A stretch of DNA of 64,000 nucleotides. Source: Minisyncoccota bacterium (lineage in GTDB: Bacteria > Patescibacteriota > Minisyncoccia > Phycocordibacterales > SBAW01). Within the stretch, counting starts at the first letter, position 1. Every line of letters begins with the position of its first letter. Below, one piece after another: positions 28,159 through 60,923 of the stretch. A program made the position numbers and the translations under genes. The stretch lies in the NCBI GenBank assembly GCA_035546575.1, contig DASZWN010000001.1:49082-113081 (forward strand), read 5' to 3'. The notes under the pieces are model-generated. The model was not told where the DNA came from, did not search any database, and saw only the letters and a program-made list of their open reading frames with translations.

Positions 28159-29493
28159 TCATTTCAACATCATACGAATCTGGTGGATCTCTTGGCTCAA
28201 GATACTGTCAGTTAAGATGTCGTTTTTTACTTTGTCACATGAGTGGATCACGGTAGTGTGATCACGGCCGCCAAGCTTTTCTCCAATGGTTGGGAACGAA
28301 ATGTGAAAGTCCTCGCGCAAAAGATACATGATCACTTGTCGAGGGCGCACTACCTCCTTGCGGCGAGTTTTTTCATAAATACTTGCCTCTTCTATGCCGT
28401 AAAAGTTGGCAATCGTTTTGACCACCTCTTGTACCGAAACAGCCTTTTTAGCGCTGCTCCCTGAGCCACGCAACAGCAGTTTTGCATCGGCGAGCGTAAT
28501 CGGCTTACCGCGCATCTCAAACTGGATTAAAAGTGTATTGAGTGCTCCCTCGAGCTCTCGCACGTTACCCTCTACGGTAGAAGCGAGATATTCCATCACA
28601 TCGTCGGCGACGATAAAGTTATGTTGCGCCGCCTTTGCTTGCACTATCGCAAGCCGAGACTCGTGGTCGGGAGTAGTAACCGAGACGATCATGCCTGCGT
28701 TAAGGCGCGACTTGATGCGGTCCTCCAGGTTTTGGATCATGTTGGGGTGCTGGTCGCTCGAAAACACGAGCTGTTTGTTGCTGTCATGCAAAAAGTTAAA
28801 GAGATGAAAGAACTCCTCCTTTGTTTTTTCCATTTTTGCCAAAAACTGGACGTCGTCCATGATCAGTACGTCGTATTGGCGATATTTTTCTTTAAAAAAC
28901 TGCACTTTCCCGGAGCCAAGCGAGGCAACATAATCCATCGCAAATTTTTCCGAGGTCATGTATTGCACTTTACGCTCAGGGGCATTAACGCGGAAATGAT
29001 TCCCTATCGCCTGGATCAAATGTGTTTTACCTAGGCCGGTCGGCCCCCAGACTAGAAGCGGATTATAGGCGATACCCGGCTTGCGGATCACGGCTTGCGC
29101 GGCCGCATGCGCGAGTTCGTTAAATGGCCCAACCACAAGAGAATTTAGGGTAAAACGCGGATTAAGATTGGTCTTTTGATGCACATTCTCAAGCGGAAGC
29201 TCCGTTGGTGCTGCTGCGCGTACCTCCTCTACAGGTTTTTTTGAGCCGCGGGAAATCACGTACTCGACGGTGCGGATATTTTCCGAGAGTCCGCGCAGTG
29301 AATGGAGGATATCCTTGTGGAATTTGGTAGAGAGCCAGTCGCGAGCAAACTGGCTGGGCACTCCTAAGTGCGCCACACCCTCCTCTACGCGTATCAGGTG
29401 TGTATCTTTAAACCACGTGTTGAAATTTGGGCGAGAGATCGCAAGTTCGAGTTCTACAAGAGCGTTTTCCCAAATTTCTTTTGTGGTTGTCAT
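28159..29493 (-). CDS. dnaA: Chromosomal replication initiator DnaA
   Basis: The start is taken at [16 protein letters not shown]. The AAA+ Walker A reads [14 protein letters not shown], and a C-terminal HTH DNA-binding domain is present. Confidence 0.9.
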
Positions 29494-29598
29494 AGTCTGC
29501 ACGGTCACACAACAATACGCTCCGCCCACCCCCGAGTCAAAACAGTACTTTTGTGTACAAAGGTGTGGAGAAACTGGGGATATGCTATAGTCTCCTGT

Positions 29599-31326: not shown

Positions 31327-32577
31327 CTACTGCGTCGAGCCGAGGCGGACTCCCCAGAGCGAATGATCGCCTTTTTTAATAAACAATAAGTAGTGCTCGT
31401 CCGGCGAGACTGCAATCTCGGTAATATCTGACGCAGCTCCCCCGTCCTCGCCACCTGGCAAAGCAATAATATCGCTTTTATTCGCACTCACATTAAACGA
31501 GAATAGTGCGTCCGGCAGTGTTGCAGCACCCTGATGCCACAAATCGAGGTATCCCGGCGGCACATACTGGAGTGGCGCTGCGCAGTACATGGTAGAAGTG
31601 GAAACACTGCTCCACACGCACTTCTCCGGGATCGGGTCAAACGAGAGCCCGGATTCTTTACCTGTTTTGACCTCGTGGACGTACGTTGACGCAGCACCGT
31701 TTACTCCCGATGATGTTTGGTATACCACGCGGCTGAAGCTCTTGTCTGCGGTTGCAGTTACGCCAGACGCAGAGAGCAGTGTGGAAACGGCGCCCGTAGC
31801 TGCCGAGATAGAAAATACCATACCCGGGTACCCTGCGGCGCTTTTTGTTTGTGCAAGAATCGTATTTTGCGCCGGCCACAAGAGTACTATCTGTGAGAGC
31901 GGCAGCGAAAAGAGTTTTTTGCCGTTTGTACCATCCGGTTTGGATATGTATCCGTCGCTGCCCACAGCGGTGGTAAGCAGATATACGATACTTTTACCGT
32001 CCGGAGAGGCTGCAACACTTATCACATTGTCCGGGAGAAATTGCACGCGCACCGGGCGGCTTGCAGCGGAAGTGGTAGTGGCTGCAGGCAGTCCCAGGTA
32101 AACCGTTTTTATCACAGTGGCATCAAGATATTGGAGTACCACCCCTGCACCGCCGTCGGTCCAGACACCCTGAACCGAGCCTGGAATAGTGGTGTTTGAT
32201 ACTGCGCGCGGTACCGCGCCCGCATTGTCGAGTGTCAGGTCAAACACATGGCCGTTTTCTTGGAGTACAAAGCGGGCAATAGTGGTTGTAGGGTGGAATG
32301 TTTGTATAAAGCTGGCGCTTGTTACTGGCGAGTCGGTTATTTTAAAGATTTTTTGTTGCGTTTGTTGAGTCGTGCTCACAATCTGGTTGTCGGTATCCGC
32401 AGAAGACGCACTACCAAGAGGTACGGTAACCGTGCGATTGTCCCCTACTCCAAACTCAGGGCCACCCGCTGAGGGAGTCTGTGTCGAGTCAGATCGGAAA
32501 AAGACAAACCAAGCAGTCCCAAAAAGGAGTACTAGTACTCCCACTCCCGCCGCAATTGGTTTCCAATCAAAGTTCAT
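31327..32577 (-). CDS. Membrane-anchored PD40/TolB-like beta-propeller protein (last gene of the T4SS-like operon)
   Basis: There is an N-terminal transmembrane helix. Repeated SPDG/SPDE blades occur (SPDGKSIVY, SPDEHYLLFIKKGDHSLWGV). It overlaps the upstream gene by 1 nt. Confidence 0.5.
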   Translation of the reverse strand: MNFDWKPIAAGVGVLVLLFGTAWFVFFRSDSTQTPSAGGPEFGVGDNRTVTVPLGSASSADTDNQIVSTTQQTQQKIFKITDSPVTSASFIQTFHPTTTIARFVLQENGHVFDLTLDNAGAVPRAVSNTTIPGSVQGVWTDGGAGVVLQYLDATVIKTVYLGLPAATTTSAASRPVRVQFLPDNVISVAASPDGKSIVYLLTTAVGSDGYISKPDGTNGKKLFSLPLSQIVLLWPAQNTILAQTKSAAGYPGMVFSISAATGAVSTLLSASGVTATADKSFSRVVYQTSSGVNGAASTYVHEVKTGKESGLSFDPIPEKCVWSSVSTSTMYCAAPLQYVPPGYLDLWHQGAATLPDALFSFNVSANKSDIIALPGGEDGGAASDITEIAVSPDEHYLLFIKKGDHSLWGVRLGSTQ

Positions 32578-32578
32578 A

Positions 32579-33532
32579 TTAATTTGATCCTATCCCGCCC
32601 GCCGAAGCTTTTACGCAACTGTACGATCCATCAGGGCCTATCTTATAGTTTCCGTACAGTGCTTCACAACTGTCATGATCCCCTTTGTCGTACGATCCTA
32701 CATTACGCACCGATTGCTGTTGTGCTGCGGGCGTGTTGTTCGAGCCCGGAACAACCAGATTAAATTTTAGAAGATCAGGATTGATGGTGTAGAGAATAAG
32801 CCATGAGCCAGCCAAAAGGAGTAACCCATAGATAGAGGAAGTCATCCATCGCTTAGCGTCTCCCTTTGTTTCCATCACCTCGGAGGTCATGTACATAATG
32901 CCTCCCACAACCAACCTTCCTACAGCGAGCAATGCGCCTACAGAAAGAAAGAGCTTAAACATAAGGTTTAAGTATGCGCCAAAGTCAGAAGCAATATTGG
33001 CAGGAGCATCGGGAAGCAACGGCTCAAGCGGAGTGTAGGAAATATTTCCGTTTGAGTTGCTGGAGCCTCTATTTGTATTTCCAGAACTGCTTTGAGTTGT
33101 TGCAGAGGTCGGAGATACTGATGTAGGCGAAGCGGTTGAAGAGGTAGTAACCGTATAGCCAGAGGGAGCTGCGGTACAGTGCATTCCTCCGCCAGAAGAA
33201 GAGCAGCCGCTCGGGAGCCTTCCAGATACAGGGATCGGGCAGTCGTATCCGCCTGAGGCTGCGGTGCATACGGCTGGTGTAAGATCGCATGTGTGTGCCG
33301 TGCCACTACCGGAACACGTATATCCGTTTGGTTCGCCGCTGCATTTGAGCTGCGTTGCTCCAAACAGGTCGCAATTGCCAGGTTTCTCCATTTCGCCGGT
33401 TATGTCGCAGACATACTGCACTTGTGACCCGGCCTGCTGCTCGCTACAGCTGATATCGGCTCCCTGTACAGATAAAGGAGCTAAAAAGCTAAGAACAAGC
33501 ACTATAGGGAAAAGGAGTCCGATTTTTTTCAT
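32579..33532 (-). CDS. Cys-rich secreted protein with a C-terminal two-helix hydrophobic hairpin (TrbC/VirB2-like pilin candidate)
   Basis: A signal peptide is followed by a domain with 14 Cys, then an S/T-rich linker. Two hydrophobic helices follow (FKLFLSVGALLAVGRLVVGGIMYM and IYGLLLLAGSWLILYTI) separated by a short charged loop, which is the VirB2/TrbC topology. Confidence 0.4.
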   Translation of the reverse strand: MKKIGLLFPIVLVLSFLAPLSVQGADISCSEQQAGSQVQYVCDITGEMEKPGNCDLFGATQLKCSGEPNGYTCSGSGTAHTCDLTPAVCTAASGGYDCPIPVSGRLPSGCSSSGGGMHCTAAPSGYTVTTSSTASPTSVSPTSATTQSSSGNTNRGSSNSNGNISYTPLEPLLPDAPANIASDFGAYLNLMFKLFLSVGALLAVGRLVVGGIMYMTSEVMETKGDAKRWMTSSIYGLLLLAGSWLILYTINPDLLKFNLVVPGSNNTPAAQQQSVRNVGSYDKGDHDSCEALYGNYKIGPDGSYSCVKASAGGIGSN

Positions 33533-34569
33533 AATCCAAATGCTGATAATGCGGTGTCTGTTTGCCCTCCAAACATAATTCTCAAAGCAGCTTGTGCGTC
33601 CTGTACAAACTTTTTAGGGTCGGTATTTTGTACCTCCACACTAACATCTGCTTGTCCGGCCCCGTTCCCTGCCTGCCTTAATGTGAGTATGCCACTGTCT
33701 GAATTCGGGCCAGACGTGCTGTCCCCGTTAAGCGTCCATGCAAAAGATGCGGTGCCGCCTCTAAGGCTCTCATTCGCAAAATAATAGGGCGCAGCCAGAA
33801 GCGTGATCTCTTTCCCGACAAGCGTTATAGTCGATGGAAATGCCTGGTCGTACAGAACGCCTCGCAACGGGTCTTTATTATAAAAAAGCACTCCTGGGTT
33901 AACTGCAGGGATAAATACCGATGCTTGCCCCACGAGCGAGCTCCCAAAGTAGATATCTACATCAACCTGCTCACCGCTGCGCAACTGGCTCCCTTGGAAT
34001 GTAAAGGTATTGTGGCCTTTGCCCGAGGCTACAGTAACCGGGTCGCCATTGAGTTTCCACTGGAACGAGAGGTTGTTTGCGGTGACTGTTCCCCCACTCA
34101 ACACTACCTGCGGGAATGCAACCACTTTTATGCTCGATCCTGCGGTATATAACGCTTTGCCGCGATAGAGTGGCGGCACCGAAGTATCTGCTTCCCAGAA
34201 CAAAGCTGTGCGAGTTGGAGTAAATACAAAATCGTTGGTGATCGTCCCCTGTATGGAGGAATTTATAACTACGTGGACTCGCGTAGTGACTCCGAGGTCG
34301 CCTGTAGTAAACGAGAATGTCTTTTGTCCTACCCCCGACAAAACAGTCTTTCCATTGACTTGCCATGTGATAGTAGCGTCACCCAGAAAAGTCCCCACAC
34401 CTTGTACCTCCATGGTCGTAAGCTGGTTTGGGCCAGGGACGTCGGGGTTAGTGATATAGCGCACAGGGTCCACACCTAGACTTTGTGCACGTACAAAGCT
34501 TCCGGTAAGGAAAATAAGTCCAAGCAGTATGATGATTTTAAAATTATGCCGCATATGCTGTACGTCCAC
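33529..34569 (-). CDS. Secreted protein with three tandem Ig-like repeats
   Basis: It has a signal peptide and three repeats of about 100 aa (ATITWQVNGKTV, NLSFQWKLNGDPV, SFAWTLNGDS). It overlaps both neighbours by 4 and 26 nt. Confidence 0.5.
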   Translation of the reverse strand: MDVQHMRHNFKIIILLGLIFLTGSFVRAQSLGVDPVRYITNPDVPGPNQLTTMEVQGVGTFLGDATITWQVNGKTVLSGVGQKTFSFTTGDLGVTTRVHVVINSSIQGTITNDFVFTPTRTALFWEADTSVPPLYRGKALYTAGSSIKVVAFPQVVLSGGTVTANNLSFQWKLNGDPVTVASGKGHNTFTFQGSQLRSGEQVDVDIYFGSSLVGQASVFIPAVNPGVLFYNKDPLRGVLYDQAFPSTITLVGKEITLLAAPYYFANESLRGGTASFAWTLNGDSTSGPNSDSGILTLRQAGNGAGQADVSVEVQNTDPKKFVQDAQAALRIMFGGQTDTALSAFGL

Positions 34570-35290
34570 GCCCGCCCTCTATATCCTTAAGAGTATCATT
34601 TGCAGCGCGAGGAATCTTGAGATTATCATTTGCAACTGTGGGCTGTTTCGGCGGCTTAATGTCGCTGTCTACTCCCCTTCCAAGCTGCAGGGCCGGCGTT
34701 CTCTCCGGCGTTTCTACACGCACAGGGCCTTCTTGTTCTTGTTGAGATATTTGTTGCGACTGGTCCTGCGAAGGTCCCCTGTTTACTCCCCCCGCAATCG
34801 TAGCGACTGTTGCTCCCGGAGAAGTTGCTGAAGTTGTCAGATTGCCAGCTATTGAGAGAACACCAGTTCCCTCCTCTGCATTCTTTTTTAAGACACAAAG
34901 AATAGTAAGCGTTGTCCAGAAGGGGATTATATTAAGGCCCGGAATGAGCTCCCCGCCTCCCCAGATCAGGTATTTTGGGTACAAGATTCCGTTAAACCCC
35001 ATAAGGGCAATTAAAAAGACCCCGAGCGTGGCACTAATGCAAAAGCCCAATGCTATGCCCATACCCATGCTGATAGGCAGTGTTGCAACCGCAAGTATCC
35101 CATTAACGAAGGGTAACCCTCCGATGGCACCGAGTACTTTGCAGCCAATGTCACCTGCAATTTGAGTTCCCACAAAACAGCCGCCGATAGGACCTGGTAA
35201 AGCCCCCACTGCAAATAATGCAACAGACATAAAAGCCTGAAAGCCGTCTATCAAAAGTCCAAGCAATATAAATAATACCCCTTTACTCAT
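34544..35290 (-). CDS. Gly-rich polytopic membrane protein
   Basis: 248 aa with 4 transmembrane helices and a C-terminal S/T/Q-rich tail. It overlaps VirB4 by 4 nt. Confidence 0.45.
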   Translation of the reverse strand: MSKGVLFILLGLLIDGFQAFMSVALFAVGALPGPIGGCFVGTQIAGDIGCKVLGAIGGLPFVNGILAVATLPISMGMGIALGFCISATLGVFLIALMGFNGILYPKYLIWGGGELIPGLNIIPFWTTLTILCVLKKNAEEGTGVLSIAGNLTTSATSPGATVATIAGGVNRGPSQDQSQQISQQEQEGPVRVETPERTPALQLGRGVDSDIKPPKQPTVANDNLKIPRAANDTLKDIEGGRGRTAYAA

Positions 35291-37125
35291 GATGTAGTTG
35301 GAGCAGAGCTCGACGCAGTGTTGGCAGCATCGGACCGTTGTTTGCGCAGTGCGAGCACCTGACTTGGATCAGAGGTAATGATCTGATCCTCGGTATACGA
35401 AGCAATTATTTTAATAGCAACGTGTTTGAGGCCGGCAAAAAAGATTCCCTCCCCCACATCAGACTCAAGAAGCAGGAACTTTTCCTCATCGGAAAGGTTG
35501 AATGTCTTTTGGAGGTTATCAATCGTAGTCGGCGATTGCTTGAGCAAAAGCTGAATCGACGAGTTAGTGATCATCGGGAGGCCATAAGGCGACTTAAGGA
35601 AGTCGTCCACATCTTGCGTAATAGTCGCGAGCCCCAAATAGTATTTGCGGCCGCGCTTTGCCATACCGTAGAGGAACGAGGCGGTGTCCTCCGACTTCAT
35701 CATCCACCACGCTTCGTCGATCACGAGCAGGCGCTTCTTTAGATTTTTGCGCACCGTGTTCCAGATGTAGTGCGTAATCAGGTACATCGCGACCGGCTTA
35801 AGGTCGTCCTCCATGTCGCGCACCGAAAATACGACGAACTTTTTGTTGATGTCGACGTTTGTTGCCTGGTTGATAAATCCGGCCCAAGTTCCTTTGGTAT
35901 ATTTGGAGAGGCGCTGCACTAATGACTCGCTTCCCTCCATACCTGCAAGCACCAGTTCAAAGTCGCTTAGGAGCGGCGGCTCAATCTGGCTGAAGTCGGA
36001 GTCAACCGTAATGTCTTTAAGCGCATACGTTTCGGTAATAGCGCGGTCCATAATCGCGTCCTCCTCCGGCGTGAGGCCGCCCATCATAAGGCGGAACATG
36101 CCCACAAGGGCTACGATATTGCTGCGCAGCACATCGGCCGGCGACTCGTCCTCGCGTGGAGGGGCCAGATCAAACGGGTTGATGTGGTGCTCGGAGTTGA
36201 GAGAAATATTGAAGTAGCGCCCCCCTACCGCCTGGGAGAGGAACTCGTACTCGCGCTCCGGGTCGATCACGATAACCTCGGTATCAAACATGAGCGTGCG
36301 CAAAATTTCGAGTTTGGTTGCATACGATTTGCCGGAGCCCGATTTTGCGAATATCACCGAGTTGTAGTTCTCCAGAGAAAAGCGGTCAAACAGCACGAGC
36401 GATGCGTTGTGGCGGTTAACGCCATATAAAATCCCTTTGTCGGAGGTGAGATCAAACGAGACGAATGGGAAAATTGATGAAAGCGGCGAGGAATTTAATT
36501 TTGAGTTTACGTTAAGCGCGTCTTCTCCCAGCGGCAGCACCGATTTAAACCCCTGCTCTTGCTGAAAGAGTGCCGGTTTAACGTACACCAGGCGCGACTC
36601 AAGCATCGACTTGATCTCGCTCTCTGCCTTGTCGAGTTCCTCCACTGTTGCGCCGTAGATCGTAATGTATACGCCAACGTCAAAGATGCGCTCCTGTGCC
36701 TGCTGGAGCTGGTCGCGCAGGTCTTCCAGGTCGCGGTACGCGGTGTCGAGTATCGGGTCGCGCACCAGGCCTTTTTGCTCGCGAGTCATAATCTGCGACT
36801 GCACCTCAGCCACCTTTTTTTGGAACTTTTTAAGAATCTCGGCCGAGTCTATCGGGTGGATAAAGATAGACACATCAAGCACTCGGTCTAGGTTGATAAC
36901 CGGGGCAAACCAAGAGTCGGTAAGCGTGCGCGGATATGACATCACAAAGAAAGTACGTGCTATTTTGTCGCCCAAGTTAAGCTCGCGCGGAGTTATCTTA
37001 AGTGCCGAGGGGGCAATAACGTCTTGGAGCTCGAGTATGCCCTGTTTGTAGATCTGTTCAGGCAAAATCGGCGCCATCGGTGCCGGAGCAGACTGCTTTT
37101 GTTTTAGAAAGTCGAGTAAAGCCAT
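35287..37125 (-). CDS. virB4: VirB4/TrbE/CagE-family T4SS ATPase, C-terminal two-thirds
   Basis: It has a CagE_TrbE_VirB region (NLGDKIARTFFVMSYPRTL) and Walker A IFAKSGSGKSYATK. A DEAWWMM motif and the C-terminal ATPase domain follow. The likely ATG at 37125 sits 1 nt after the stop of the upstream N-domain ORF. Confidence 0.8.
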   Translation of the reverse strand: MALLDFLKQKQSAPAPMAPILPEQIYKQGILELQDVIAPSALKITPRELNLGDKIARTFFVMSYPRTLTDSWFAPVINLDRVLDVSIFIHPIDSAEILKKFQKKVAEVQSQIMTREQKGLVRDPILDTAYRDLEDLRDQLQQAQERIFDVGVYITIYGATVEELDKAESEIKSMLESRLVYVKPALFQQEQGFKSVLPLGEDALNVNSKLNSSPLSSIFPFVSFDLTSDKGILYGVNRHNASLVLFDRFSLENYNSVIFAKSGSGKSYATKLEILRTLMFDTEVIVIDPEREYEFLSQAVGGRYFNISLNSEHHINPFDLAPPREDESPADVLRSNIVALVGMFRLMMGGLTPEEDAIMDRAITETYALKDITVDSDFSQIEPPLLSDFELVLAGMEGSESLVQRLSKYTKGTWAGFINQATNVDINKKFVVFSVRDMEDDLKPVAMYLITHYIWNTVRKNLKKRLLVIDEAWWMMKSEDTASFLYGMAKRGRKYYLGLATITQDVDDFLKSPYGLPMITNSSIQLLLKQSPTTIDNLQKTFNLSDEEKFLLLESDVGEGIFFAGLKHVAIKIIASYTEDQIITSDPSQVLALRKQRSDAANTASSSAPTTS

Positions 37126-37126
37126 A

Positions 37127-37795
37127 CTATTTTTGTGCTGCCATATTGGTAACCTGGAGCGGCTTTTCAAGTTCGCCGGGGTTAAACAGCTTGTAGAAGA
37201 GCTCGATCACCTCCTCGGTACCAAGTTTGACCACGCGCACAGAGGTGCGTACCAACCCTTGTTCCACAACCGAGATTCGCTGCTCGAGCTGCGTGCGATA
37301 TTGCTCGAACTGCTCGTCGGTCAAAGAGTTGGATGCATTTTTGCCTGTCGGCAGCAAATTGCCGAGCGCCGAGATGCCTCCGCCCCGAGCAATAAGCGCC
37401 GGGTCGTACGGCACAACGATAAAAAAGTTCTTGGCCATGATATTGGCACGCTCAGTAAAGTCTTTGATAAAAACGATGTACTCCCGGATCTGGATCTTCA
37501 TCAGGTCGTCGAGCTCAAGCGCATAGCGCTCCTCAAGGAGGGCAATATATGGCCGCACATCCAGGTCTCGGCTCTCAATAAAAAACTGCACCGAGAATTC
37601 GAGCGAATTGAGAAAGTTTTGGAACTGCCCGATAATCGCCTGCTGCTCGTCACTGCTCTTGAGTGCCAAGTTAATAGACGAGGCCATCAGGAGCGCGCGC
37701 AGCGAGCCGTCTTTAAGAATAATAACGCCGTCGCGCACCTCTTTAATGGGTACGAATTCCTGTGTTGCTTGAGCTTTTACTTTTTGGTCAGGCAT
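37127..37795 (-). CDS. VirB4-family N-terminal domain encoded as a separate ORF
   Basis: It reads VPIKEVRDGVIILKDGSLRALLMASSINLALKSSDEQQAIIGQFQNFLNSLEFSVQF, which is the typical PrgJ/TcpF/VirB4 N-terminus. An A5 run at the junction means a 1-nt indel would fuse it to the downstream ATPase ORF. Confidence 0.7.
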   Translation of the reverse strand: MPDQKVKAQATQEFVPIKEVRDGVIILKDGSLRALLMASSINLALKSSDEQQAIIGQFQNFLNSLEFSVQFFIESRDLDVRPYIALLEERYALELDDLMKIQIREYIVFIKDFTERANIMAKNFFIVVPYDPALIARGGGISALGNLLPTGKNASNSLTDEQFEQYRTQLEQRISVVEQGLVRTSVRVVKLGTEEVIELFYKLFNPGELEKPLQVTNMAAQK

Positions 37796-37800
37796 AGGAT

Positions 37801-38247
37801 TTAAATCTCAAAGCCGGTACGCGCAGTGGTGTCCGCCACTCCCATCTTAGCCCGATCTTTTATATTGAGTGACCAAGCCAAATCCTTGAGTTTGCTTTCG
37901 GAAAGTTTTGGCACTCCGGATACTGTCGCAACAGCTGTAGGTGCAACAGCTGCCTCGGGAGTTTTTGCCTCGTGTTGTTTCCAGAGATACAGCTTATGAC
38001 CCAGGATATAGCTGAACGCATGTTCGATCACCACAATAAGTGGCCGGCCGTTAACCTGGTAGAACGCAAGACCTGCCGAGAGTGCAATCACCGGTATGGC
38101 TAGAATAACGGTGAGATAAAGAGGCAAGAGCGAAAAGAAGATAAGACACAGCCCTCCCCCGCCCGCCAAGTAGATAAACTGTTTTAAGGTCAGCGGACCA
38201 AAAATCTTGTCTTCTATCTCGATAAACTGAGGAACCTGATAGCGCAT
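37801..38247 (-). CDS. PrgI-family (VirB3-like) small membrane protein
   Basis: It has the PrgI N-terminal signature MRYQVPQFIEIEDKIFGPLTLKQFIYL followed by two transmembrane helices. It lies immediately upstream of VirB4, as in Gram-positive T4SSs. Confidence 0.7.
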   Translation of the reverse strand: MRYQVPQFIEIEDKIFGPLTLKQFIYLAGGGGLCLIFFSLLPLYLTVILAIPVIALSAGLAFYQVNGRPLIVVIEHAFSYILGHKLYLWKQHEAKTPEAAVAPTAVATVSGVPKLSESKLKDLAWSLNIKDRAKMGVADTTARTGFEI

Positions 38248-38271
38248 CGCTATCTAGTATATCGCATTATT

Positions 38272-38895
38272 TCACTCCGGAGGTTCGCGATACGGGTCAG
38301 TTTTATAGGCAGCGGGTTTAGGTGCCTCTGGTTTTGGCGGTTGCACAGGCGGCGGAGCCACTTGTACCGTCTTTTCAGTCAGCATAACCTCGGCCGGGTG
38401 CATCTCCGGCGGTTTGACTGGCATAGTCGGTTTAGGAACAGCAGGTGTTGGAGTACTGGAAGCTGATGCTGCAGGCGTTGAGGATATAGACGGAGGCGAT
38501 ACGGTAGGTTTTGGAGCCGCAGTGGCTGCCGAGGGCATAACAACAGATTTTTCTGGAGTAGATACAGTCGTAGAAGCTGCAGGCCCAGTCTTCATAGACT
38601 CGCGGATAGAGAGAAGTATCTGCGAGTTCACCTCCCCAGCTATCTTGTCGGCCTCCTCTTTTGATATACCAACCTCATTTACAAGGTTAGAGGGAAAATT
38701 ATTCGCGTCAGTAAACCCGAGCATGAGCATGAGCGTCTCGCTGCCCAGCTTTTCTGTCTGGTCAATATGTAGATGGTGGGCTTGAGCAATAGCTGCCACC
38801 TTCTGCTCCCAGTTGTTGGAGAGGATTGCTTCCTGAACATCTTCGGGTAACTCTGCAAGCTTCGCTTCTATTTCTTTGGTAAAATCTTCAGCCAT
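38272..38895 (-). CDS. Pro/Ala/Thr-rich protein of unknown function
   Basis: 207 aa with an alpha-helical N-domain and then a low-complexity P/T/A/S-rich segment (…PKPTVSPPSISSTPAASASSTPTPAVPKPTMPVKPP…). Confidence 0.45.
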   Translation of the reverse strand: MAEDFTKEIEAKLAELPEDVQEAILSNNWEQKVAAIAQAHHLHIDQTEKLGSETLMLMLGFTDANNFPSNLVNEVGISKEEADKIAGEVNSQILLSIRESMKTGPAASTTVSTPEKSVVMPSAATAAPKPTVSPPSISSTPAASASSTPTPAVPKPTMPVKPPEMHPAEVMLTEKTVQVAPPPVQPPKPEAPKPAAYKTDPYREPPE

Positions 38896-38924
38896 AATAT
38901 TTTAGTTAGTATATCATTTGGCAA

Positions 38925-41075
38925 CTAGTGGGCTGGTTTTGAATGTCCAAAAGCATCATGTCCATCTGATTTTTTAGAGTCATCGTTATTTGGAGAATGA
39001 GATTCTTTATCGTGTCCTTCTTCTTTGTCATGATCTTCTTCACCCCCACCCTCTTCTTCGTGATGATCTTTTTCAAATTGTTTTACCGCTTTCAAAAGGT
39101 TATCGTGTGCGCCTCCTCCCTTCGCCATCTTAAGTACTTTTTCTGCACCTAGTGTTTGAGCACGTGAAAGACGACTATTAAGCCGCGCTGCCAACTTCTC
39201 GAGATTCTCCTTCTGTCGTAGAGAAACTCTGCTGCTACCGACTTCAGTCAGAGACTTAATTTCCTTCTCCTTGTCTTCAGCAAGTTTCTTGCTTACTTTC
39301 GCACTTTCTCTATAGCTATCTGCCGTTGCACCAGTTGATTTTGCTGCAAGAGCTGCAAATTTTATAGCATCACGTCGGGCTTCTTTTAATTCGTCTTTCA
39401 GTCCACCAACTTTTTTCTCATATTCGCCTCGGCCATTTTCCTCGTCATACTCTCTTTCAAACCTTCTTTGTTCACGAGCAACATCTACCGCATCGCCTTT
39501 GTAAGCCTCAGCCTGCTTTTGGTAACCCTTAGCAGCCTCATCAATGGCTTTTGCAATACCACCTTTGCCGCCCGCTTTGCCAAATTCTGTTAACCCGACT
39601 TTTCCTAAAGGATTTCGGAGATCGAGACTGCCTTTCCCAATTCTGTTTGTGTAATCAAATATTCTACCGATAGTACGCGGATTAGATGTAGCGACGCCCT
39701 GGAATCTTTCTGAACGGGAAGCTTCATATGCAACTCTGCCAACGGTATTTCTGTAGAATCGTGCCGGAATAGCAAATCCGACTTTGCCCCCTGCCCAGTT
39801 TCCTGCTTGGGCGCCTATAGCACCCATACCATCGGCGGCTTTCATACCCAGGAAGAGCATTACGATAATGAACCCCAATCGTATAGATATATCAGCAATC
39901 AGTGCAGCTATACCAAGTAGACCATTAGTTGCTCCAGCCACTCCTGTTGCAGCTCCTGTGGGCTGTTGTATGTATGTGACAAATGCCTGGCTTATATTAA
40001 GATCGCCAGCGAACTGCACAATAAGCCAGAAAATAAAGAGAAACACAGCGGGATAGAATGCATGGCTAATAAGTGTTTCTTGCCATTGGTCGTAGTATTT
40101 TTCAAAGCGATGCGAAGCCTTGGCTATAAAAGCCAGGGGTGATGCAACGATAATAAGCCACAGCACTGCAATACGCACAATAAATCGTATGCCTACCGAC
40201 ACAAAGGCGGCGGCAAGGATGAAATATATAACGCCCATAAATATGTAAATGATCAGGAGCGTTATGAATTCGGTAACACCATTGGTATTGTCTTGGAACT
40301 TGCCAAACGAATCCGTACCAAGTATTTTCTGCACGCCTACCGCATTCATAATGCTCGCGGTAAGATCTTTGGTGCCATTTACCGTCGCAGGTTGCCCATT
40401 AACAATCACAGTGGGTACGGCATTATAAAACTGTGCCGCAACAATATTGCCGGCATCTATTACGACTCGAGTAAAGAAAAAGCTGAAGTTGATGATAAGC
40501 GCAATAAATATTACGAAAGCGAGCGTCTGCATCGTGTGGCCTGTGTCCGCTGAGAGTATGATTGTGATCGCAATATAGATAAGTATGAGAATGAACCCCA
40601 TATTAGCTATGTCGCGAGCCGTTTCCCACCCATGGGTGACAAACGTTAGGCCATACGCGGTGCTGTTTATCGATAACTGGGTTGCTACGTTAAAAATGTA
40701 AGCTGCAACATATGCTACAAAACTTCCGAACCCAACCGTGAAGGCATATACAGGTAAAAGAAGACAAGAGCTTATCGAGTTACAAAGAGGGGCAGTATTA
40801 GTAGTTACAGAATTTGCAGATAAACCATGGGCTTCAGCTGCTTGTTTTTCACAGGCTGCCTGATTACCTCCATTGTTGACACATGCTTGTGCTTCAGAAT
40901 TTGCTTGATTACGAGCATTGATAGCATCAATTTGTGCCTGGGTTATGACAGATGCTCCTTGGGCTTTTGGTGTTGCTCCAATCGATGAAAACACAAGTAG
41001 CAGCGTCGCAAGGCACAATAAAGCTTTTGCAGTGCTGCTTAGAAATTTATTTTTTATGCTACTGCCCCAGCGCAT
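38925..41075 (-). CDS. VirB6/TrbL-like polytopic membrane protein with charged coiled-coil C-terminal tail
   Basis: 716 aa with a signal or N-terminal transmembrane segment, then at least 7 transmembrane helices. The last ~250 aa are highly charged (KE/KD-rich) and His/Glu-rich. It sits upstream of PrgI and VirB4, matching the Gram-positive T4SS order. Confidence 0.55.
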   Translation of the reverse strand: MRWGSSIKNKFLSSTAKALLCLATLLLVFSSIGATPKAQGASVITQAQIDAINARNQANSEAQACVNNGGNQAACEKQAAEAHGLSANSVTTNTAPLCNSISSCLLLPVYAFTVGFGSFVAYVAAYIFNVATQLSINSTAYGLTFVTHGWETARDIANMGFILILIYIAITIILSADTGHTMQTLAFVIFIALIINFSFFFTRVVIDAGNIVAAQFYNAVPTVIVNGQPATVNGTKDLTASIMNAVGVQKILGTDSFGKFQDNTNGVTEFITLLIIYIFMGVIYFILAAAFVSVGIRFIVRIAVLWLIIVASPLAFIAKASHRFEKYYDQWQETLISHAFYPAVFLFIFWLIVQFAGDLNISQAFVTYIQQPTGAATGVAGATNGLLGIAALIADISIRLGFIIVMLFLGMKAADGMGAIGAQAGNWAGGKVGFAIPARFYRNTVGRVAYEASRSERFQGVATSNPRTIGRIFDYTNRIGKGSLDLRNPLGKVGLTEFGKAGGKGGIAKAIDEAAKGYQKQAEAYKGDAVDVAREQRRFEREYDEENGRGEYEKKVGGLKDELKEARRDAIKFAALAAKSTGATADSYRESAKVSKKLAEDKEKEIKSLTEVGSSRVSLRQKENLEKLAARLNSRLSRAQTLGAEKVLKMAKGGGAHDNLLKAVKQFEKDHHEEEGGGEEDHDKEEGHDKESHSPNNDDSKKSDGHDAFGHSKPAH

Positions 41076-42867
41076 AGCATTGATTGAGTTTGGTACTGGT
41101 GTCGGAGTTGAGCGCGTTCATCTGTGCCTGGAGCGTGGTGCGGTCTTGCTGGGCGGACGTGATATCGGTCGAGTCGTATACACTTCCAGAGTTTTTAAGC
41201 TGAGCATATGAGGCTGCTGCAGCACGGACCTCAAGCAATGTGGTTGCCGAGAGAACTTGCGTCTGGACAGCTTGGATATCAGCAATATCTTGATTAGCTG
41301 CAGTTATTTTGTTGTTGTACAGCGTAACTTGGCCTTCAAGCTCGGCTATTTTGTCGGCAGTACTCTGGGCCAAGTCAGTTTTATTTGCGGCAGTCCAGCA
41401 ATTGCCAAGCGTAGTAAGGTTTGCCTGAGCATTTTGTATGTCGCTAATATCGCCCTGCTCTACTGCGCCGTACTGTTGGGCGTATTGTACCGAGGTCTGC
41501 ATCTCATCAAGCAGGTCATTTGCCTCGCCTTCTGCTTGCAAATCCTCTGTGCTCAATGATGCGCCGTAGCCATTTTGGCCGTTGCCAAGGTTGGAGAGAC
41601 CCTTATTAAACATCTTAGTGATAAGAGCATTAGTTAGTGCTCCGATGATCTCATCGATGCTTTGGGCAAGATTAAGCTCATTAAGTGTCGACTGCACATT
41701 GGCGTTGAATGCGCCTAGTATTGCGCTGCCTGGCGTTACACAGTTTCCGTCTTTATCTTTTGCGCATAGGAATCCTTGCCCATTGTTGAGCTCTTGCGTA
41801 CTTGCCAGTACTGCACTCCCCCGTGCGCCTTCTATAGCTACCTGCCCGTACATATATGCGCCGAAAGGATTGTTCGTTGGCATGGTGGTAAATGATATGA
41901 GCCCCGGCCACCCGCCTTGCGAGAAGTCACCGCCTGCAAACTTTTCTATGTTGCCGACAACGCCCGAGAGCGTACACGATGGGGCGTTATTGCGCCGCGC
42001 ATAACTCTGTGCAATGGCGATGCGAACTTTAAGCTGGAACGGGCTGCAGAGGAACGCCAGGTTGCTGCCCTCGATCACGCTGCCTGCTGCTTGGTCGGCA
42101 ACATCGTTAAAGAATTTATTGTAGTCTTGCACAAAGGCAGGTTTGCCCTCAAATCCCGAGTTGATCCAGTTGACGGTGTCGTTGGTGATTTTATCTATCG
42201 CAATACGAGCAAGTGCCATCGTGACGCACTTCAAAATGCTATCGGTTTGTTGGTTTGCATGGGTCGAGCTGTCGTTTACATTCACTTGTCCAGATAGTGC
42301 ACCAAAAATAGAGCCGAGTGCTGTGCCCGCTAGCTGGCTTGCGGCAAATTTTGCCAAACAGGCGGCTGCAACACCCGCCAAGCCTGCGCCAAAATTATTG
42401 CCACCCCCGCTCGATACGGTTGCAGGGTCTACGCCAATATACGAAGTACCATACACACTCGTGTTAGTAACCTGGTTGATCGGCGTCGGGTTAAAGAGGC
42501 TCCCTGCTCCACGCAGCGTAAGCGACCCTGAGCCGCTGCTTGAAGTGACGCTTGAACCGTCGAGCCATGTAGCCCCGCTCGGGTTTGCAGAACCCAGATC
42601 GACGTATGAGATAGTGCCGTCGGAGTACCCCCCGCCCGAGCCTTGTCCGCTTACTCCGGTACCCGCGTTCGAGCCAACGGGCACTTGCCCGTTTACATCG
42701 GAGCCGATCGTGCCGGTCGAAGTGTTATTGCGGTCGCCGCCCGTGCCGAGCGTGCCGGTGTCAGTTACCTTTGCTCCCCCACCCGAGAATAGCCAGAACC
42801 ATAGCCCAACGATGAGCGCTAAAATAACGAGCGCTCCGATGATTATATAAAGTATCCTTCTGGTCAT
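41059..42867 (-). CDS. Membrane-anchored large extracellular protein (Gly/Ser-rich N-region, helical C-region)
   Basis: 602 aa with an N-terminal transmembrane helix and a G/S/T-rich linker. The C-terminal half is alpha-helical and rich in Q/N/A. It could be a VirB5-like or tip protein, but there is no firm homology. Confidence 0.45.
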   Translation of the reverse strand: MTRRILYIIIGALVILALIVGLWFWLFSGGGAKVTDTGTLGTGGDRNNTSTGTIGSDVNGQVPVGSNAGTGVSGQGSGGGYSDGTISYVDLGSANPSGATWLDGSSVTSSSGSGSLTLRGAGSLFNPTPINQVTNTSVYGTSYIGVDPATVSSGGGNNFGAGLAGVAAACLAKFAASQLAGTALGSIFGALSGQVNVNDSSTHANQQTDSILKCVTMALARIAIDKITNDTVNWINSGFEGKPAFVQDYNKFFNDVADQAAGSVIEGSNLAFLCSPFQLKVRIAIAQSYARRNNAPSCTLSGVVGNIEKFAGGDFSQGGWPGLISFTTMPTNNPFGAYMYGQVAIEGARGSAVLASTQELNNGQGFLCAKDKDGNCVTPGSAILGAFNANVQSTLNELNLAQSIDEIIGALTNALITKMFNKGLSNLGNGQNGYGASLSTEDLQAEGEANDLLDEMQTSVQYAQQYGAVEQGDISDIQNAQANLTTLGNCWTAANKTDLAQSTADKIAELEGQVTLYNNKITAANQDIADIQAVQTQVLSATTLLEVRAAAASYAQLKNSGSVYDSTDITSAQQDRTTLQAQMNALNSDTSTKLNQCYALGQ

Positions 42868-42869
42868 AG

Positions 42870-43763
42870 TTATTGCAAAGAAAGAAGCGTAGCCCAGGCG
42901 CTTCCGGGCTCGTCCTTAGTAAAAAGTATACCGTTTTGTTTAAGTATCTGCGCAATGTTTATAAACACACGCGTCGTCTCGTCTACAAGTGACTGATAGG
43001 TCTGGAGGCCGGCTATGCTGCGCAATGGGTCGCTTACCGCAACCTCCATATCCGAGTATGCTCCCGCGGCGTATGAAAGGTTGTTTAGGATCTGTAGATG
43101 GAGCGGCGCAAGCGTAGGCGGTACGGGCACTTTAGCTAAGTCGCGTACGAGCGCTCGGTACTCTTTTTGTATATTTGCGAGCTTTGCCACTTGCGCTGGG
43201 TCGTTAGAATCGGTTAGATACCCCAACGCAAAAAGCGTGTCGTTGTAATTTGCACCTGGGTGCGCAGCCATCGCAGTCATAACAGCGTTGCCGTATGCCT
43301 TAAGGGCAATAGGCGTCTGGGTTGAGAGGGTTAGGTCGCTTGAAGCGTACGCTGGGGGGTCCTTCTCGCCTTGTATCTGCGCCGTTGCTTGTGCAATAAG
43401 TTGGTTTTGGGTCGGAATATCACTGCCAAGACCCTGTGATTTGGCATCAAATAGGTTGACCAGCAGGCTCTGAGCCACCGTGGTGGTCAAATTAGTACTT
43501 TTTGTGGCGTCTAAGAGTGTGTCTACTGTAGAGCTTGCAACCGCAGCAGTGATAGCGCTCTTGCCTTGTATGGCAAGGAGTGTCTGCTCCCAATTTGGAT
43601 CAACACGTGATAGATCTCTCGGCGCCGTAGTTGCAGTGAGAGTCGAGGGCAAACCTCGCGGTGCTCCCGTTAAATATTGCGCTGCGAGCACAAGTGCGCC
43701 TGACGCGGCAATTGAGCCGACAATAAGCACAAACTGCGCGCTAGGGAGAAAGCGGCTAGGCAT
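42870..43763 (-). CDS. Bitopic membrane protein (first gene of the T4SS-like operon; VirB8-like topology)
   Basis: 297 aa with a single N-terminal transmembrane helix and then a soluble domain. This topology is compatible with VirB8/PrgL-type proteins. Assignment is by topology only. Confidence 0.4.
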   Translation of the reverse strand: MPSRFLPSAQFVLIVGSIAASGALVLAAQYLTGAPRGLPSTLTATTAPRDLSRVDPNWEQTLLAIQGKSAITAAVASSTVDTLLDATKSTNLTTTVAQSLLVNLFDAKSQGLGSDIPTQNQLIAQATAQIQGEKDPPAYASSDLTLSTQTPIALKAYGNAVMTAMAAHPGANYNDTLFALGYLTDSNDPAQVAKLANIQKEYRALVRDLAKVPVPPTLAPLHLQILNNLSYAAGAYSDMEVAVSDPLRSIAGLQTYQSLVDETTRVFINIAQILKQNGILFTKDEPGSAWATLLSLQ

Positions 43764-43805
43764 TGCTACTAGTATAGCAGTACTTTTTACGCGCTATACT
43801 GTATA

Positions 43806-44313
43806 TATGCGCACACTTCTAACATCTGCACTGCTCGCTACACTCCTCCTACCATCTATTGGCTTCGCGCAGTCATCTACAAGCACTGCCACAACTACTT
43901 CGCAATCGAGTAACTCGAGTAGCGGTGCTGGTACTGCCCTGTTGATTGGGGCGGGTGTCACTGCAGGTGTAGTAGCAGCTAAGGCGCTCTCGTCAGGCAT
44001 CTCTGGTCCTCCGGGGATTTCTTTCGGTGGTCGAGTATTGACTGCCCTTCCATGCATTAGTCCGCTTGGACCCTCGCTCGCCATTACTATCAAACCTGCA
44101 GGTGTCTTTCCGATCAATTACATTTGGACTCCAGCAACCCTGACTAAGCCAACGCAGCTTTCTGTGCCTACCCCGGGTGGGCAAGTACTCGGTATTGCCG
44201 ATATCCCCTACGCTTGTTGGAACCCTATTAAAGGCGGCCTCTTCGGACTCTTTACGTTCTTGAGCTACTCGTACGGTCTGCGCATGCAGATTGTCGGTAC
44301 TAGCCCTTATTGA
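43806..44313 (+). CDS. Small secreted S/T-rich protein with a central hydrophobic segment
   Basis: It has a signal peptide MRTLLTSALLATLLLPSIGFA. The mature part has an S/T-rich stretch and then LLIGAGVTAGVVAAKAL. It diverges from the T4SS-like operon. Confidence 0.4.
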
Positions 44314-45101: not shown

Positions 45102-47054
45102 TTAGTCTAGATAGATAGTTCGACGTGCGCCCTGCCTGCCGGCAGGCAGGTCCGGCGCCTCATTGGTAATCAGGTCCTCTGGGATGTCAGAGAGAAACTG
45201 CGATGGAATGGTTGCATTTTTGGAGCCAAACACGGTGCGGTAGGCCGCAAAACTCAAGTACAACTTCTCTTTTGCGCGTGTGATAGCAACGTACATTAAG
45301 CGTCGCTCCTCCTCCCTATCAGACTCACTGCCTTCGTCGCGCTCATACGGAAAAAGACCTTCTTCTAAGCCCGTAATAAACACGTGCGGGTACTCAAGCC
45401 CTTTGGCAGCGTGCACGGTCATGAGTCTAACCGAGTTTGCCTCGTCTTTAAGCTCGTCCTGATCAGATGCAAGTGCGGCAGACTCCAAAAACTTCTCGAG
45501 TGCCTCTAAAGGGGTTGCCTCGCTGTTGTCGTAGCGAGCAGCGAGCGTAACTAGCTCGCGCACGTTCTCAAGGCGCTCAGCGCCCTCAAGCTTGTCTGCT
45601 TTGTACATGCGGTCCATGCCGCTCTCTTCCATCACAAACTGCAGCAGCTTTGACGGCTGTAATTCCTGTGCGGTATTTTTTATTTTTTCGAGTAATAGGC
45701 GGAAGAGTTTTACTTTGACACCGACAGCTCCGCCGAGCTCTGCTTCTCCACCCCCGAGCATTTTTAAGAGCGTTACTTTGCCGATGCCGCGCGGCGGCAC
45801 GTTAGCGACGCGCGCAATGTCGGGCGCGGTGCCGTATACTGATGCGCGCACAAACGAGATGACGTCTTTAACCTCCTTGCGCTCGAAAAATTTCGTTCCC
45901 AGCACTTGGTACGGGATATCAGAAGAGAGCAAAGCTTCTTCTATCGCGCGTGACTGAAAATTTGCGCGGTAGAGTACGCAGAAATCGCGCGCCTGCCTGC
46001 CGGCAGGCAGGGCGCTTATCAACTCTTTTATTTTGCGCGCGATAAACATGCCCTCGTCGAGCTCATCAAATGCCTGGTAGAGCGAGAGCATCTCGCCGTC
46101 GGTGTTTTTTGTAAACAGATTCTTTTCTCGGCGGTACACATTTTTAGCAATTACCTCGTTTGCCGCAGCAAGTATATTTTTGGTCGAGCGGTAGTTCTCC
46201 TCAAGTATCACAATTTTGCCTCCAGGAAACTGTTTCTCAAACGACAGTATGTTTGCAATTTGGGCGCCGCGCCAGCCGTAGATTGTCTGGTCGATATCCC
46301 CCACCGCGCAGATATTCTTGGCAGGACCAACAAGAAGCTCCACCATCTCGGCTTGGATCCCGTTGGTGTCCTGATACTCGTCTATATGTATATACGGCCA
46401 TCGAGCCTGATACATCGCACGACGCTCCGGGTTCTCGCGCAAAAATCGCACCGAGCGCAGCAATAGGTCGTCGAAGTCGAGCGCCTGGTCTGCCGCAAGC
46501 GCGTGTTCGTAGGTCATCCAGACCGAGGCGAGCGCCCGCTCGCGCGGATTTTTGGTTGCCTCGATATACTCGCCTGCCGTCCTGCCCTCCCCCTTGTTGC
46601 GGGAGATCATACCGAGCGCCGCACGAGGCTCGATATCCTCAAGCCCAAGCGACTTAAGCGCCTCTTTTACCGCCCGCATCGAGTCGTTGCGGTCGTAGAT
46701 TGCCGGCGTACGCTTATAGCCCATGGATTTTGCGTTCTCCTTGATGATTGTGAGTCCGAGTGAGTGGAAGGTCGAGATAAACGGCGGTCGCAATCGCTCA
46801 GACACTGGTCTATTAATGATTTTATCTTCCAAAAGCAGCTTAATCGTCCGCTCGCGCATCTCGCTTGCCGCCTTATTGGTAAATGTAATGGCAAGAATCT
46901 TCTCGGGAGCGACTCCTTTGTGCACGATCTCGAGTATCCGGTGCGTGATCACGCGAGTTTTGCCGGCTCCGGCACCCGCGAGCACCAAAAGCGGGCCCTC
47001 GGTGCATAACACCGCTTCTTTTTGTGCGTCATTTAACCCTTGTAGATGCTCCAC
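45102..47054 (-). CDS. pcrA: ATP-dependent DNA helicase PcrA/UvrD
   Basis: Walker A reads LAGAGAGKTRVITHRI. Other motifs include TFTNKAA, DEYQDTN and VHAAKGLEYP. Two in-frame palindromic repeat copies are embedded, encoding LPAGRQ at an internal site and at the C-terminus. Confidence 0.9.
   Translation of the reverse strand: MEHLQGLNDAQKEAVLCTEGPLLVLAGAGAGKTRVITHRILEIVHKGVAPEKILAITFTNKAASEMRERTIKLLLEDKIINRPVSERLRPPFISTFHSLGLTIIKENAKSMGYKRTPAIYDRNDSMRAVKEALKSLGLEDIEPRAALGMISRNKGEGRTAGEYIEATKNPRERALASVWMTYEHALAADQALDFDDLLLRSVRFLRENPERRAMYQARWPYIHIDEYQDTNGIQAEMVELLVGPAKNICAVGDIDQTIYGWRGAQIANILSFEKQFPGGKIVILEENYRSTKNILAAANEVIAKNVYRREKNLFTKNTDGEMLSLYQAFDELDEGMFIARKIKELISALPAGRQARDFCVLYRANFQSRAIEEALLSSDIPYQVLGTKFFERKEVKDVISFVRASVYGTAPDIARVANVPPRGIGKVTLLKMLGGGEAELGGAVGVKVKLFRLLLEKIKNTAQELQPSKLLQFVMEESGMDRMYKADKLEGAERLENVRELVTLAARYDNSEATPLEALEKFLESAALASDQDELKDEANSVRLMTVHAAKGLEYPHVFITGLEEGLFPYERDEGSESDREEERRLMYVAITRAKEKLYLSFAAYRTVFGSKNATIPSQFLSDIPEDLITNEAPDLPAGRQGARRTIYLD
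45131..45150. repeat. Perfect 20-bp palindrome CCTGCCTGCCGGCAGGCAGG at the pcrA 3' end, in frame as LPAGRQ
   Basis: The exact palindrome is flanked by GCGCC/GGCGC. It is identical to the copy at 45992..46011. Confidence 0.85.
45992..46011. repeat. Perfect 20-bp palindrome CCTGCCTGCCGGCAGGCAGG internal to pcrA, in frame as LPAGRQ
   Basis: Exact copy, flanked by GCGCG and GCGC. Confidence 0.85.
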
Positions 47055-60473: not shown

Positions 60474-60510
60474 GGCACAATTCTAGCACGCCCACCTTGG
60501 GCCTATCTTT

Positions 60511-60867: not shown

Positions 60868-60923
60868 CTGGTTTTGTTTGTTCTAGCTCCCTCTTTGCAA
60901 TAGAAAATAAAAGACATCCATTT

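Follow-up and report, generated by a model that had tools for sequence, protein, structure and literature searches.

A chromosomal type IV secretion gene cluster of the Patescibacteria clade and its accessory genes in a Minisyncoccota bacterium

The ATPase VirB4 of type IV secretion systems (T4SSs) was found in 2,417 of 3,035 Patescibacteria genomes, with 2,425 proteins in one clade nested in MPF-FATA (Quinonero-Coronel 2025, PMC12102498). According to this survey, TrsD is the commonest VirB4 partner and T4SS feature of Patescibacteria, and PrgI/VirB3, VirB6, and VirB2-like pilins (PF18895) are encoded close to virB4. Relaxases are nearly absent, VirB8 is almost undetectable, and VirD4 homologues, present in 2,918 Patescibacteria genomes, are mostly distant from virB4. 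The neighbors of virB4 in Paceibacteria are dnaA, dnaN, rnpA, ksgA, and rpmH. In Southlakia, transposon sequencing identified both the T4SS genes and the pilins as essential to epibiotic growth; no coupling protein or relaxase was recognizable, and protein export or an alternative role was suggested (Wang 2023, PMC10633639). The T4SS of Patescibacteria is also covered by a 2025 review (PMC12857230), and a 2026 preprint (10.64898/2026.06.21.733656) described tubular structures, possibly T4SS pili, that reach the host. Here, we analyzed 64,000 nucleotides (nt) of a Minisyncoccota bacterium (assembly GCA_035546575.1, contig DASZWN010000001.1, positions 49,082 to 113,081; referred to as the window), in which 11 consecutive minus-strand open reading frames (ORFs), from 43763 down to 31327, constitute a T4SS gene cluster.

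We conclude that the cluster is very probably a vertically inherited chromosomal T4SS that belongs to the monophyletic Patescibacteria clade, a branch within the Gram-positive/archaeal MPF-FATA class; the genome is that of a member of Paceibacteria (Parcubacteria). Most of these ultra-small bacteria ("candidate phyla radiation") have such a cluster close to their genes for replication. Down to its genomic neighborhood, the locus is of the kind already described in 2023 to 2025 and is ordinary for the lineage. A preliminary description, made from the letters of the window, had read the genes as a T4SS. This interpretation is correct, but the finding is not new, because the system is described in PMC10633639, PMC12102498, and PMC12857230.

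Core components and their conservation

The profile matches show that the cluster encodes the cytoplasmic-membrane core of a monoderm T4SS, consisting of TrsD and the VirB4 ATPase, PrgI/VirB3, and a VirB2-type pilin (Table 1). The product of gene 7 matched NF045971 (CD1110 family) with 391 bits (NCBI cut-off, 325) and PF19044 with an E value of 3e-26, and that of gene 5 matched PF12666 with 42.4 bits (gathering score, 27). Thus, both VirB4 and PrgI scored above curated cut-offs, and the PrgI/VirB3 homolog of the preliminary description was corroborated. The true start of virB4 is ATG 37125 and not TTG 37170, and the resulting protein of 612 amino acids (aa) is 100% identical to an NCBI protein of 612 aa (P0001). 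It contains the Walker B motif LLVIDE; a Walker A-like SGSGKS was recognized by eye, and a search with the strict pattern GxxGxGK[ST] gave zero matches.

Gene 6 encodes TrsD, the VirB4 N-terminal domain. It matched NF041427 (TrsD) with an E value of 1e-8, below the full-length cut-off, and aligned to positions 99-233 of VirB4_plasma and 2-76 of CD1110. The pilin encoded by gene 10 matched PF18895 (T4SS_pilin) with 28.2 bits (gathering score, 26.6) at residues 189-249; it has a signal peptide and two hydrophobic helices, and its orthologs vary in length from 134 to 462 aa. In line with this, the Cys-rich candidate with VirB2/TrbC topology proposed earlier is retained as the pilin. A hidden Markov model of the pilin domain matched gene 10 as the sole pilin-type ORF in the 64 kb. 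Additional pilin paralogs, and gene 8 as a pilin, were rejected on this basis.

Membrane topologies of the cluster proteins were taken from a hydropathy scan. For gene 3, the scan gave 7 hydrophobic segments in addition to the charged tail, and the gene is located upstream of prgI-virB4, as prgH is. The TrbL/VirB6 family PF04610 was matched by 4 of 29 syntenic gene 3 orthologs (best E value, 4.7e-5). We regard gene 3 as a VirB6-like candidate on the strength of these orthologs, with topology and position in agreement. Of the VirB6/TrbL-like polytopic protein described earlier, the topology and the tail therefore stood, and the family assignment comes from the orthologs and not from a match of the protein itself. 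The order VirB6-like, X, VirB3, VirB4 had been likened to prgH-prgI-prgJ, and it indeed matches that of Gram-positive conjugative T4SSs.

The cluster was compared with 80 species-representative loci, predominantly from Patescibacteria/Parcubacteria metagenome-assembled genomes (Paceibacteria). Gene order, inspected in a sample of 12 of these loci, was colinear in all 12 as pcrA-ksgA-[g1..g11]-jag/yidC-dnaA-dnaN, which answers the question of synteny with related genomes raised in the preliminary description. Median identities, determined by tblastn in the 80 loci, were 78% for VirB4, 62% for TrsD, 51% for PrgI (found in 75 loci), 54% for DnaA, 51% for PcrA, 49% for KsgA, and 39% for DnaN. VirB4 was 75-94% identical over the 80 loci, and by this sequence comparison it is more conserved than the replication initiator DnaA. 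This fits vertical inheritance under strong constraint and contradicts a mobile element. In Paceibacteria species with VirB4 in that range, DnaA was about 50-57% and DnaN about 37-42% identical; constraint on VirB4 of this strength is unusual in a secretion ATPase.

The best 120 VirB4 homologs listed were 90-100% identical to the query, and those among them named by taxon all belonged to Patescibacteria, Paceibacteria, Adlerbacteria, or Nomurabacteria. As judged by these nearest neighbors rather than by a tree, the protein groups with Patescibacteria VirB4s and not with plasmid or integrative and conjugative element (ICE) proteins.

Table 1. Genes of the T4SS cluster and promoter-like boxes, in window positions
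Feature	Coordinates	Strand	Description
Gene 1	42870..43763	-	297 aa; N-terminal membrane anchor and predicted all-helical ectodomain
Gene 2	41059..42867	-	602 aa; anchor, Gly/Ser-rich linker, Cys-containing all-helical domain, C-terminal helical bundle (predicted)
Gene 3	38925..41075	-	716 aa; VirB6-like polytopic protein, ~250-aa charged C-terminal tail ("extended VirB6")
Gene 4	38272..38895	-	207 aa; predicted cytoplasmic, conserved N-terminal ~100 aa, Pro-rich tail
Gene 5 (prgI)	37801..38247	-	148 aa; PrgI/VirB3 homolog, adjoins trsD-virB4
Gene 6 (trsD)	37127..37795	-	222 aa; TrsD, VirB4 N-terminal domain as its own ORF
Gene 7 (virB4)	35287..37125	-	612 aa; VirB4 ATPase, C-terminal two-thirds of canonical VirB4
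Gene 8	34544..35290	-	248 aa; Gly-rich multi-pass membrane protein, hydrophilic tail; optional member
Gene 9	33529..34569	-	346 aa; signal peptide/anchor and three Ig-like beta-sandwich repeats
Gene 10	32579..33532	-	317 aa; VirB2-like T4SS pilin, Cys-rich N-terminal extension, Ser/Thr linker
Gene 11	31327..32577	-	416 aa; membrane-anchored, probable TolB/PD40-type beta-propeller
-10-like box TATACT	43771..43776	-	7 nt upstream of gene 1 ATG
-10-like box TATACT	38908..38913	-	12 nt upstream of gene 4 ATG, in 29-nt gap after gene 3
-10-like box TATACT	38256..38261	-	8 nt upstream of prgI ATG

Inheritance and function of the cluster

The preliminary description had reported no VirD4, relaxase, VirB11, or element boundary nearby and had considered the system chromosomally fixed rather than a conjugation module. 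Our scan covered ORFs of at least 150 aa across the 64 kb, and among them we detected no VirD4/TcpA coupling protein, relaxase, or VirB11. There was no integrase next to the cluster, no tRNA gene less than 12 kb from it, and no direct repeat bracketing it; the only recombinase in the window is a Xer-type gene at 56396-57316, approximately 12.6 kb away. The GC content of the cluster is approximately that of its flanks. With the same site in the sampled loci, no relaxase or type IV coupling protein (T4CP) nearby, and published work in agreement, both statements were borne out.

Could the cluster nevertheless be the mating-pair-formation module of an ICE, with relaxase, coupling protein, and oriT beyond the window? 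VirB4, PrgI, and TrsD are homologous to Gram-positive plasmid and ICE conjugation proteins, and VirD4-like genes occur elsewhere in many Patescibacteria genomes (PMC12102498). However, tRNAs, an integrase, direct repeats, and a GC shift were all sought at the cluster as signs of ICE boundaries, and none was found; just 109 relaxases were counted in the 3,035 genomes (PMC12102498); and the same housekeeping genes flank the cluster in the species loci that were sampled, where VirB4 exceeds DnaA in conservation. Since synteny and conservation are the opposite of the mobile-element pattern, the ICE explanation is largely refuted, and we consider it very improbable. Even less probable, to a degree that makes it negligible, is that the cluster is decaying and its two-ORF VirB4 a frameshifted pseudogene. 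Canonical VirB4 is made as a single protein of about 800 aa, and here two ORFs are parted by a stop codon plus 1 nt. But this junction (...AAA TAG T ATG GCT...) contains no frameshift inside the reading frame, and 76 of the 80 loci likewise encode TrsD separately, in an ORF of about 210-225 aa. Furthermore, the median identities of both proteins given above, the Walker A-like motif, and the intact Walker B speak against decay, and TrsD is a recognized separate component of pGO1-type systems (PMC12102498). Because the two-ORF layout is conserved, the remnant explanation is refuted, and a frameshift or pseudogene was rejected; the sequence comparison identifies the layout as ancestral. The VirB4 in two ORFs reported earlier is thus confirmed as such, but it is not a split, since TrsD plus VirB4 is the lineage-wide architecture.

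Regarding function, dedicated uptake of DNA or RNA, like that by archaeal Ced or Helicobacter ComB, would feed a cell unable to make nucleotides. This is a real possibility that falls short of an even chance. VirB4 weakly matches the DNA-import ATPases CedB (E value, 1e-8) and CedD (3e-3), but these scores are far under the family cut-offs and CD1110 is the better match. The nucleic-acid-processing genes nearby (pcrA, comM, and pnp) point in the same direction, but they are ordinary housekeeping neighbors, and none of the cluster proteins could be identified as a DNA-binding or nuclease component. Import was proposed in PMC12102498, and according to the preprint 10.64898/2026.06.21.733656, host RNA is fed upon and PNPase and VirB4 are inherited together; direct evidence of import is lacking for any Patescibacterium. 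Somewhat unlikely is that the machine exports effectors or is a purely adhesive pilus, like the T4CP-less Bordetella Ptl and Brucella VirB systems. T4CP-less protein-secreting T4SSs do exist (PMC12102498, PMC12857230), the pilin has a large variable Cys-rich extension, and lectin, Ig, or PKD modules, which typify adhesins, occur in relatives of gene 2; such a role is also in line with the suggestion of Wang 2023 (PMC10633639) for Southlakia. However, no candidate effector or chaperone is recognizable in or beside the cluster, and adhesion in the phylum is already credited to type IV pili, for which a PilB gene is present at 18229-19929. Compared with effector export, we consider it more likely that host macromolecules are taken up or that the machine is a conduit for host contact.

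For the vertically inherited Patescibacteria T4SS, the following working model can be proposed. TrsD and VirB4 would bind to PrgI and to the VirB6-like protein, supplying the energy for pilin extraction and polymerization. The pilin polymer would cross the cell wall as a pilus or conduit directed at the cell on which the epibiont lives. The wall-spanning, host-contact part would be built from the three-Ig protein, the TolB-like propeller, and both anchored helical proteins, and these would take the place of VirB8, VirB1, and adhesins, whose functions are otherwise missing. The machine would serve host interaction and not conjugation, and by analogy to Southlakia it is probably essential. A host-interaction device in an episymbiotic small-genome bacterium had been judged the better fit in the preliminary description, and synteny, the lack of a relaxase or T4CP, and the published work support this.

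Several points weigh against this interpretation. The absence of a coupling protein holds for the window, and a VirD4-like gene may be present elsewhere in the genome. Gene 3 itself gave no Pfam, NCBIfam, or PDB match, and no VirB8 or VirB1 homolog was identifiable in the cluster. The roles of genes 1, 2, 4, 8, 9, and 11 are deduced from co-location, conservation, and predicted extracellular topology, and pilus production, cargo, and direction are inferred. Finally, essentiality was established in one Saccharimonadia species only, and no T4SS of Paceibacteria has a demonstrated function.

Accessory genes, transcription, and neighborhood

Except for the core, the cluster consists of genes whose positions are kept and whose sequences diverge fast. 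Among the 80 loci, gene 9 was present in 76 and is the most conserved accessory gene, followed by gene 11 (66), gene 3 (60), gene 4 (55), and the pilin gene (51); gene 2 (43), gene 1 (31), and gene 8 (9) were rarer.

Gene 9 contains three internal repeats, with hhalign probabilities of 96, 72, and 96%. Its profile matched the Ig domains of phage T4 Hoc (E value, 3e-4), and among 36 orthologs we found BiPBP_C in 13, Ig_3 in 6, and also PKD; all Ig-type matches of gene 9 and its orthologs were under the curated thresholds. The secreted protein with three Ig repeats of the preliminary description is supported by these repeats. Gene 11 has one anchor (residues 8-26) and a conserved Cys pair (C320/C332). 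Its profile weakly matched TolB propellers (E value, 1e-3), and PD40 and DPPIV_N were found in 3 and 2 of 32 orthologs, respectively. Thus, the membrane anchor claimed for this protein stood, and its PD40/TolB-type propeller is weakly supported. Neither the Ig-like nor the propeller protein is mentioned in the 2025 survey (PMC12102498).

Sequence-profile searches against PDB with genes 1, 2, and 3 gave nothing significant. Gene 1 had been described as a bitopic protein with VirB8 topology. The membrane topology was recovered, but the predicted fold is a four-helix bundle and not an NTF2-like alpha+beta fold, and gene 1 was rejected as a putative VirB8/PrgL/TcpC homolog. Gene 2, described earlier as a 602-aa anchored extracellular protein, indeed has a single N-terminal hydrophobic anchor, and its Cys-containing helical domain is conserved. 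It had no sequence match in Pfam, NCBIfam, or PDB, and its AlphaFold2 model resembles only generic helical bundles; on these grounds, a VirB1-type hydrolase was rejected, and similarity to a pilus-tip or VirB6-adjacent component of the VirB5/TraI type is not supported. DUF4141, a domain of the Bacteroides conjugative-transposon protein (TraI) encoded beside traJ, matched 2 of 36 gene 2 orthologs and could be neither localized nor reproduced. A profile search of 1.84 billion representatives assigned to the gene 2 family 5,659 representatives at 50% clustering; the matches listed were all close relatives. Because its orthologs and wider relatives carry added F5/8-type-C, Big_2, PKD, and Ig-like modules, gene 2 is probably surface exposed and possibly binds the host.

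The remaining two accessory proteins conform to their earlier descriptions. Gene 4, the Pro-rich protein, has zero hydrophobic segments and 14% Pro and keeps its position in the loci that carry it. Gene 8, the Gly-rich four-helix membrane protein, has 4-6 hydrophobic segments and 15% Gly; many loci clearly do without it, and there virB4 adjoins gene 9 directly. Pfam and NCBIfam searches returned no significant family for gene 4 and no family for gene 8.

Possibly new are the accessory set conserved in Paceibacteria (three-Ig protein, TolB-like propeller, and anchored helical proteins) and the conservation of VirB4 above that of DnaA. We tentatively propose that, in Paceibacteria, a core of TrsD, VirB4, PrgI, VirB6, and pilin, with VirB4 constrained more than DnaA, is permanently joined to an undescribed extracellular module that replaces VirB8, VirB1, and adhesins. 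The make-up of this module is suggested with the same reserve: the three-Ig protein, the TolB-like propeller, and two anchored helical proteins may together span the wall and recognize the host. One of the latter, gene 2, is part of a family that comprises more than 5,600 clusters and in which members swap in lectin, PKD, or Big_2 modules.

All eleven minus-strand genes of the preliminary description exist in the window. Its boundary at 44313, however, belongs to a divergent plus-strand ORF (43807-44313) and lies outside the minus-strand cluster. The junctions from gene 1 to gene 11 measure +2, -17, +29, +24, +5, +1, -4, -26, -4, and +1 nt (negative values indicate overlap), and the -26 junction shrinks to -11 if gene 9 starts at ATG 34554. 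Overlaps of 1-26 nt had been claimed throughout; the cluster is tightly packed overall, but overlaps occur at 4 of the 10 junctions only, and two have gaps of 24-29 nt.

Scans of the cluster for consensus sigma-70 promoters and terminators gave results at chance level. Three -10-like boxes (Table 1) sit at the head of the cluster and at its only two internal gaps above 20 nt. Of 72 prgI orthologs, 49 are preceded by a comparable box, as are 18 of 31 orthologs of gene 1; the box was less conserved upstream of gene 4 (12 of 53 orthologs), and upstream of the tightly coupled genes 2, 3, 7, 10, and 11 it was present in 8-19% of orthologs. The gene 1 box is a probable promoter giving a leaderless or short-leader transcript, and the prgI box is a probable conserved internal promoter for prgI-trsD-virB4 and the later genes. 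Since the boxes before gene 1 and prgI are conserved, they suggest at least two conserved transcription units, g1-g3(-g4) and prgI-trsD-virB4-...-g11, with mRNAs that are probably leaderless or have very short leaders. Of the single 11-gene operon assumed earlier, the tight packing is therefore retained but the single unit probably is not.

TATACT/TATAAT boxes also lie approximately 6-15 nt upstream of many starts window-wide (for example, 3914, 38247, 38895, 43763, 43807, 48965, 56329, and 63736), and ATATACT occurs 13 times in the window (4.2 expected). These counts suggest that leaderless or short-leader mRNAs are widespread in the window.

One flank of the cluster comprises dnaN, dnaA, yidC, and jag, and the opposite one ksgA, pcrA, an M23/LysM peptidase gene, comM, and pnp, in agreement with the jag/yidC and ksgA/pcrA flanks reported earlier. 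The divergent ORF between the cluster and ksgA, which has a 7-nt overlap with the ksgA stop, encodes a 168-aa protein that combines a signal peptide with a Ser/Thr-rich region. This ORF was present in only the three closest related of the 80 loci (40-59% identity), and a family search with it gave no match. Two genes past the cluster, a LysM and M23 peptidase is encoded at 47197-48348 (plus strand). Such a gene was less than 10 kb from virB4 in just 6 of the 80 related loci; in the 2025 survey (PMC12102498), some VirB1-like proteins near virB4 in Paceibacteria bear M23/LysM domains.

The GC skew switches sign at about 60.4-60.6 kb, and an AT-rich intergenic stretch contains three DnaA boxes, TTATCCACA at 60924 and 60970 and TTATGCACA at 60990. 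The replication origin is probably located at 60400-61100 and not beside dnaA (28159-29529), which would place the T4SS cluster 17-30 kb from the origin and co-directional with the fork.

Further features of the window include the PilB-type ATPase (type II secretion system/type IV pilus; plus strand) mentioned above, which places type IV pilus genes in the same 64 kb as the T4SS. A 1,278-aa protein encoded at 6065-9901 (minus strand) weakly matched Gly_rich_2 and may be a large surface protein. A perfect 20-nt palindrome, CCTGCCTGCCGGCAGGCAGG, occurs twice within the pcrA/uvrD coding sequence (45131-45150 and 45992-46011, 861 nt apart).

Comparison with known systems

Few conserved machines could account for the way in which these ultra-small bacteria live off host cells, and the Patescibacteria T4SS is among them. 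The window holds no new system but a clean Paceibacteria example, and the 80-locus comparison yields testable details: constant accessory genes, conservation of VirB4 above DnaA, and a conserved promoter-like box before prgI-trsD-virB4. Targets for structural studies could be chosen with their help, as could targets for genetics once a Paceibacteria-host pair can be manipulated.

The closest described systems are those of the Patescibacteria clade, as in Southlakia epibionticum (SEML1_0006-0019) and the 2025 survey. They share with the present cluster the same VirB4 and separate TrsD, PrgI/VirB3, a VirB6-like protein (a candidate here), and the PF18895 pilin; likewise, they are chromosomal, lie in the dnaA/dnaN/rnpA/ksgA neighborhood (Paceibacteria), and have no relaxase or T4CP nearby. 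In contrast to Saccharimonadia and Microgenomatia, in which arrays of 2-11 pilin genes are common, there is one pilin gene here, and no lysozyme or peptidase gene follows virB4. The three-Ig, TolB-like, and anchored helical accessory proteins found here are unmentioned in the survey.

The Gram-positive conjugative MPF-FATA systems (PrgH-PrgI-PrgJ of pCF10, TrsC-TrsD-TrsE of pGO1, and CD1110 of Clostridioides difficile CTn2) have the same VirB4 family, PrgI, and TrsD and share the order VirB6-like, VirB3, VirB4. Unlike them, the cluster is without a relaxase, a T4CP, a VirB1-type hydrolase (PrgK), a VirB8-like protein (PrgL), and a PrgB-type adhesin, and it has a VirB2-type pilin, which is not found in the Gram-positive systems; it is chromosome-fixed and vertically inherited. 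Archaeal Ced, Helicobacter pylori ComB, Bordetella Ptl, and Brucella VirB are also VirB4 centered, have no relaxase, and are non-conjugative, some of them without a coupling protein. Past VirB4 (CedB match far below cut-off, as given above), however, they show no specific homology to the present cluster, and their envelopes differ from that of the monoderm epibiont in which it is found.

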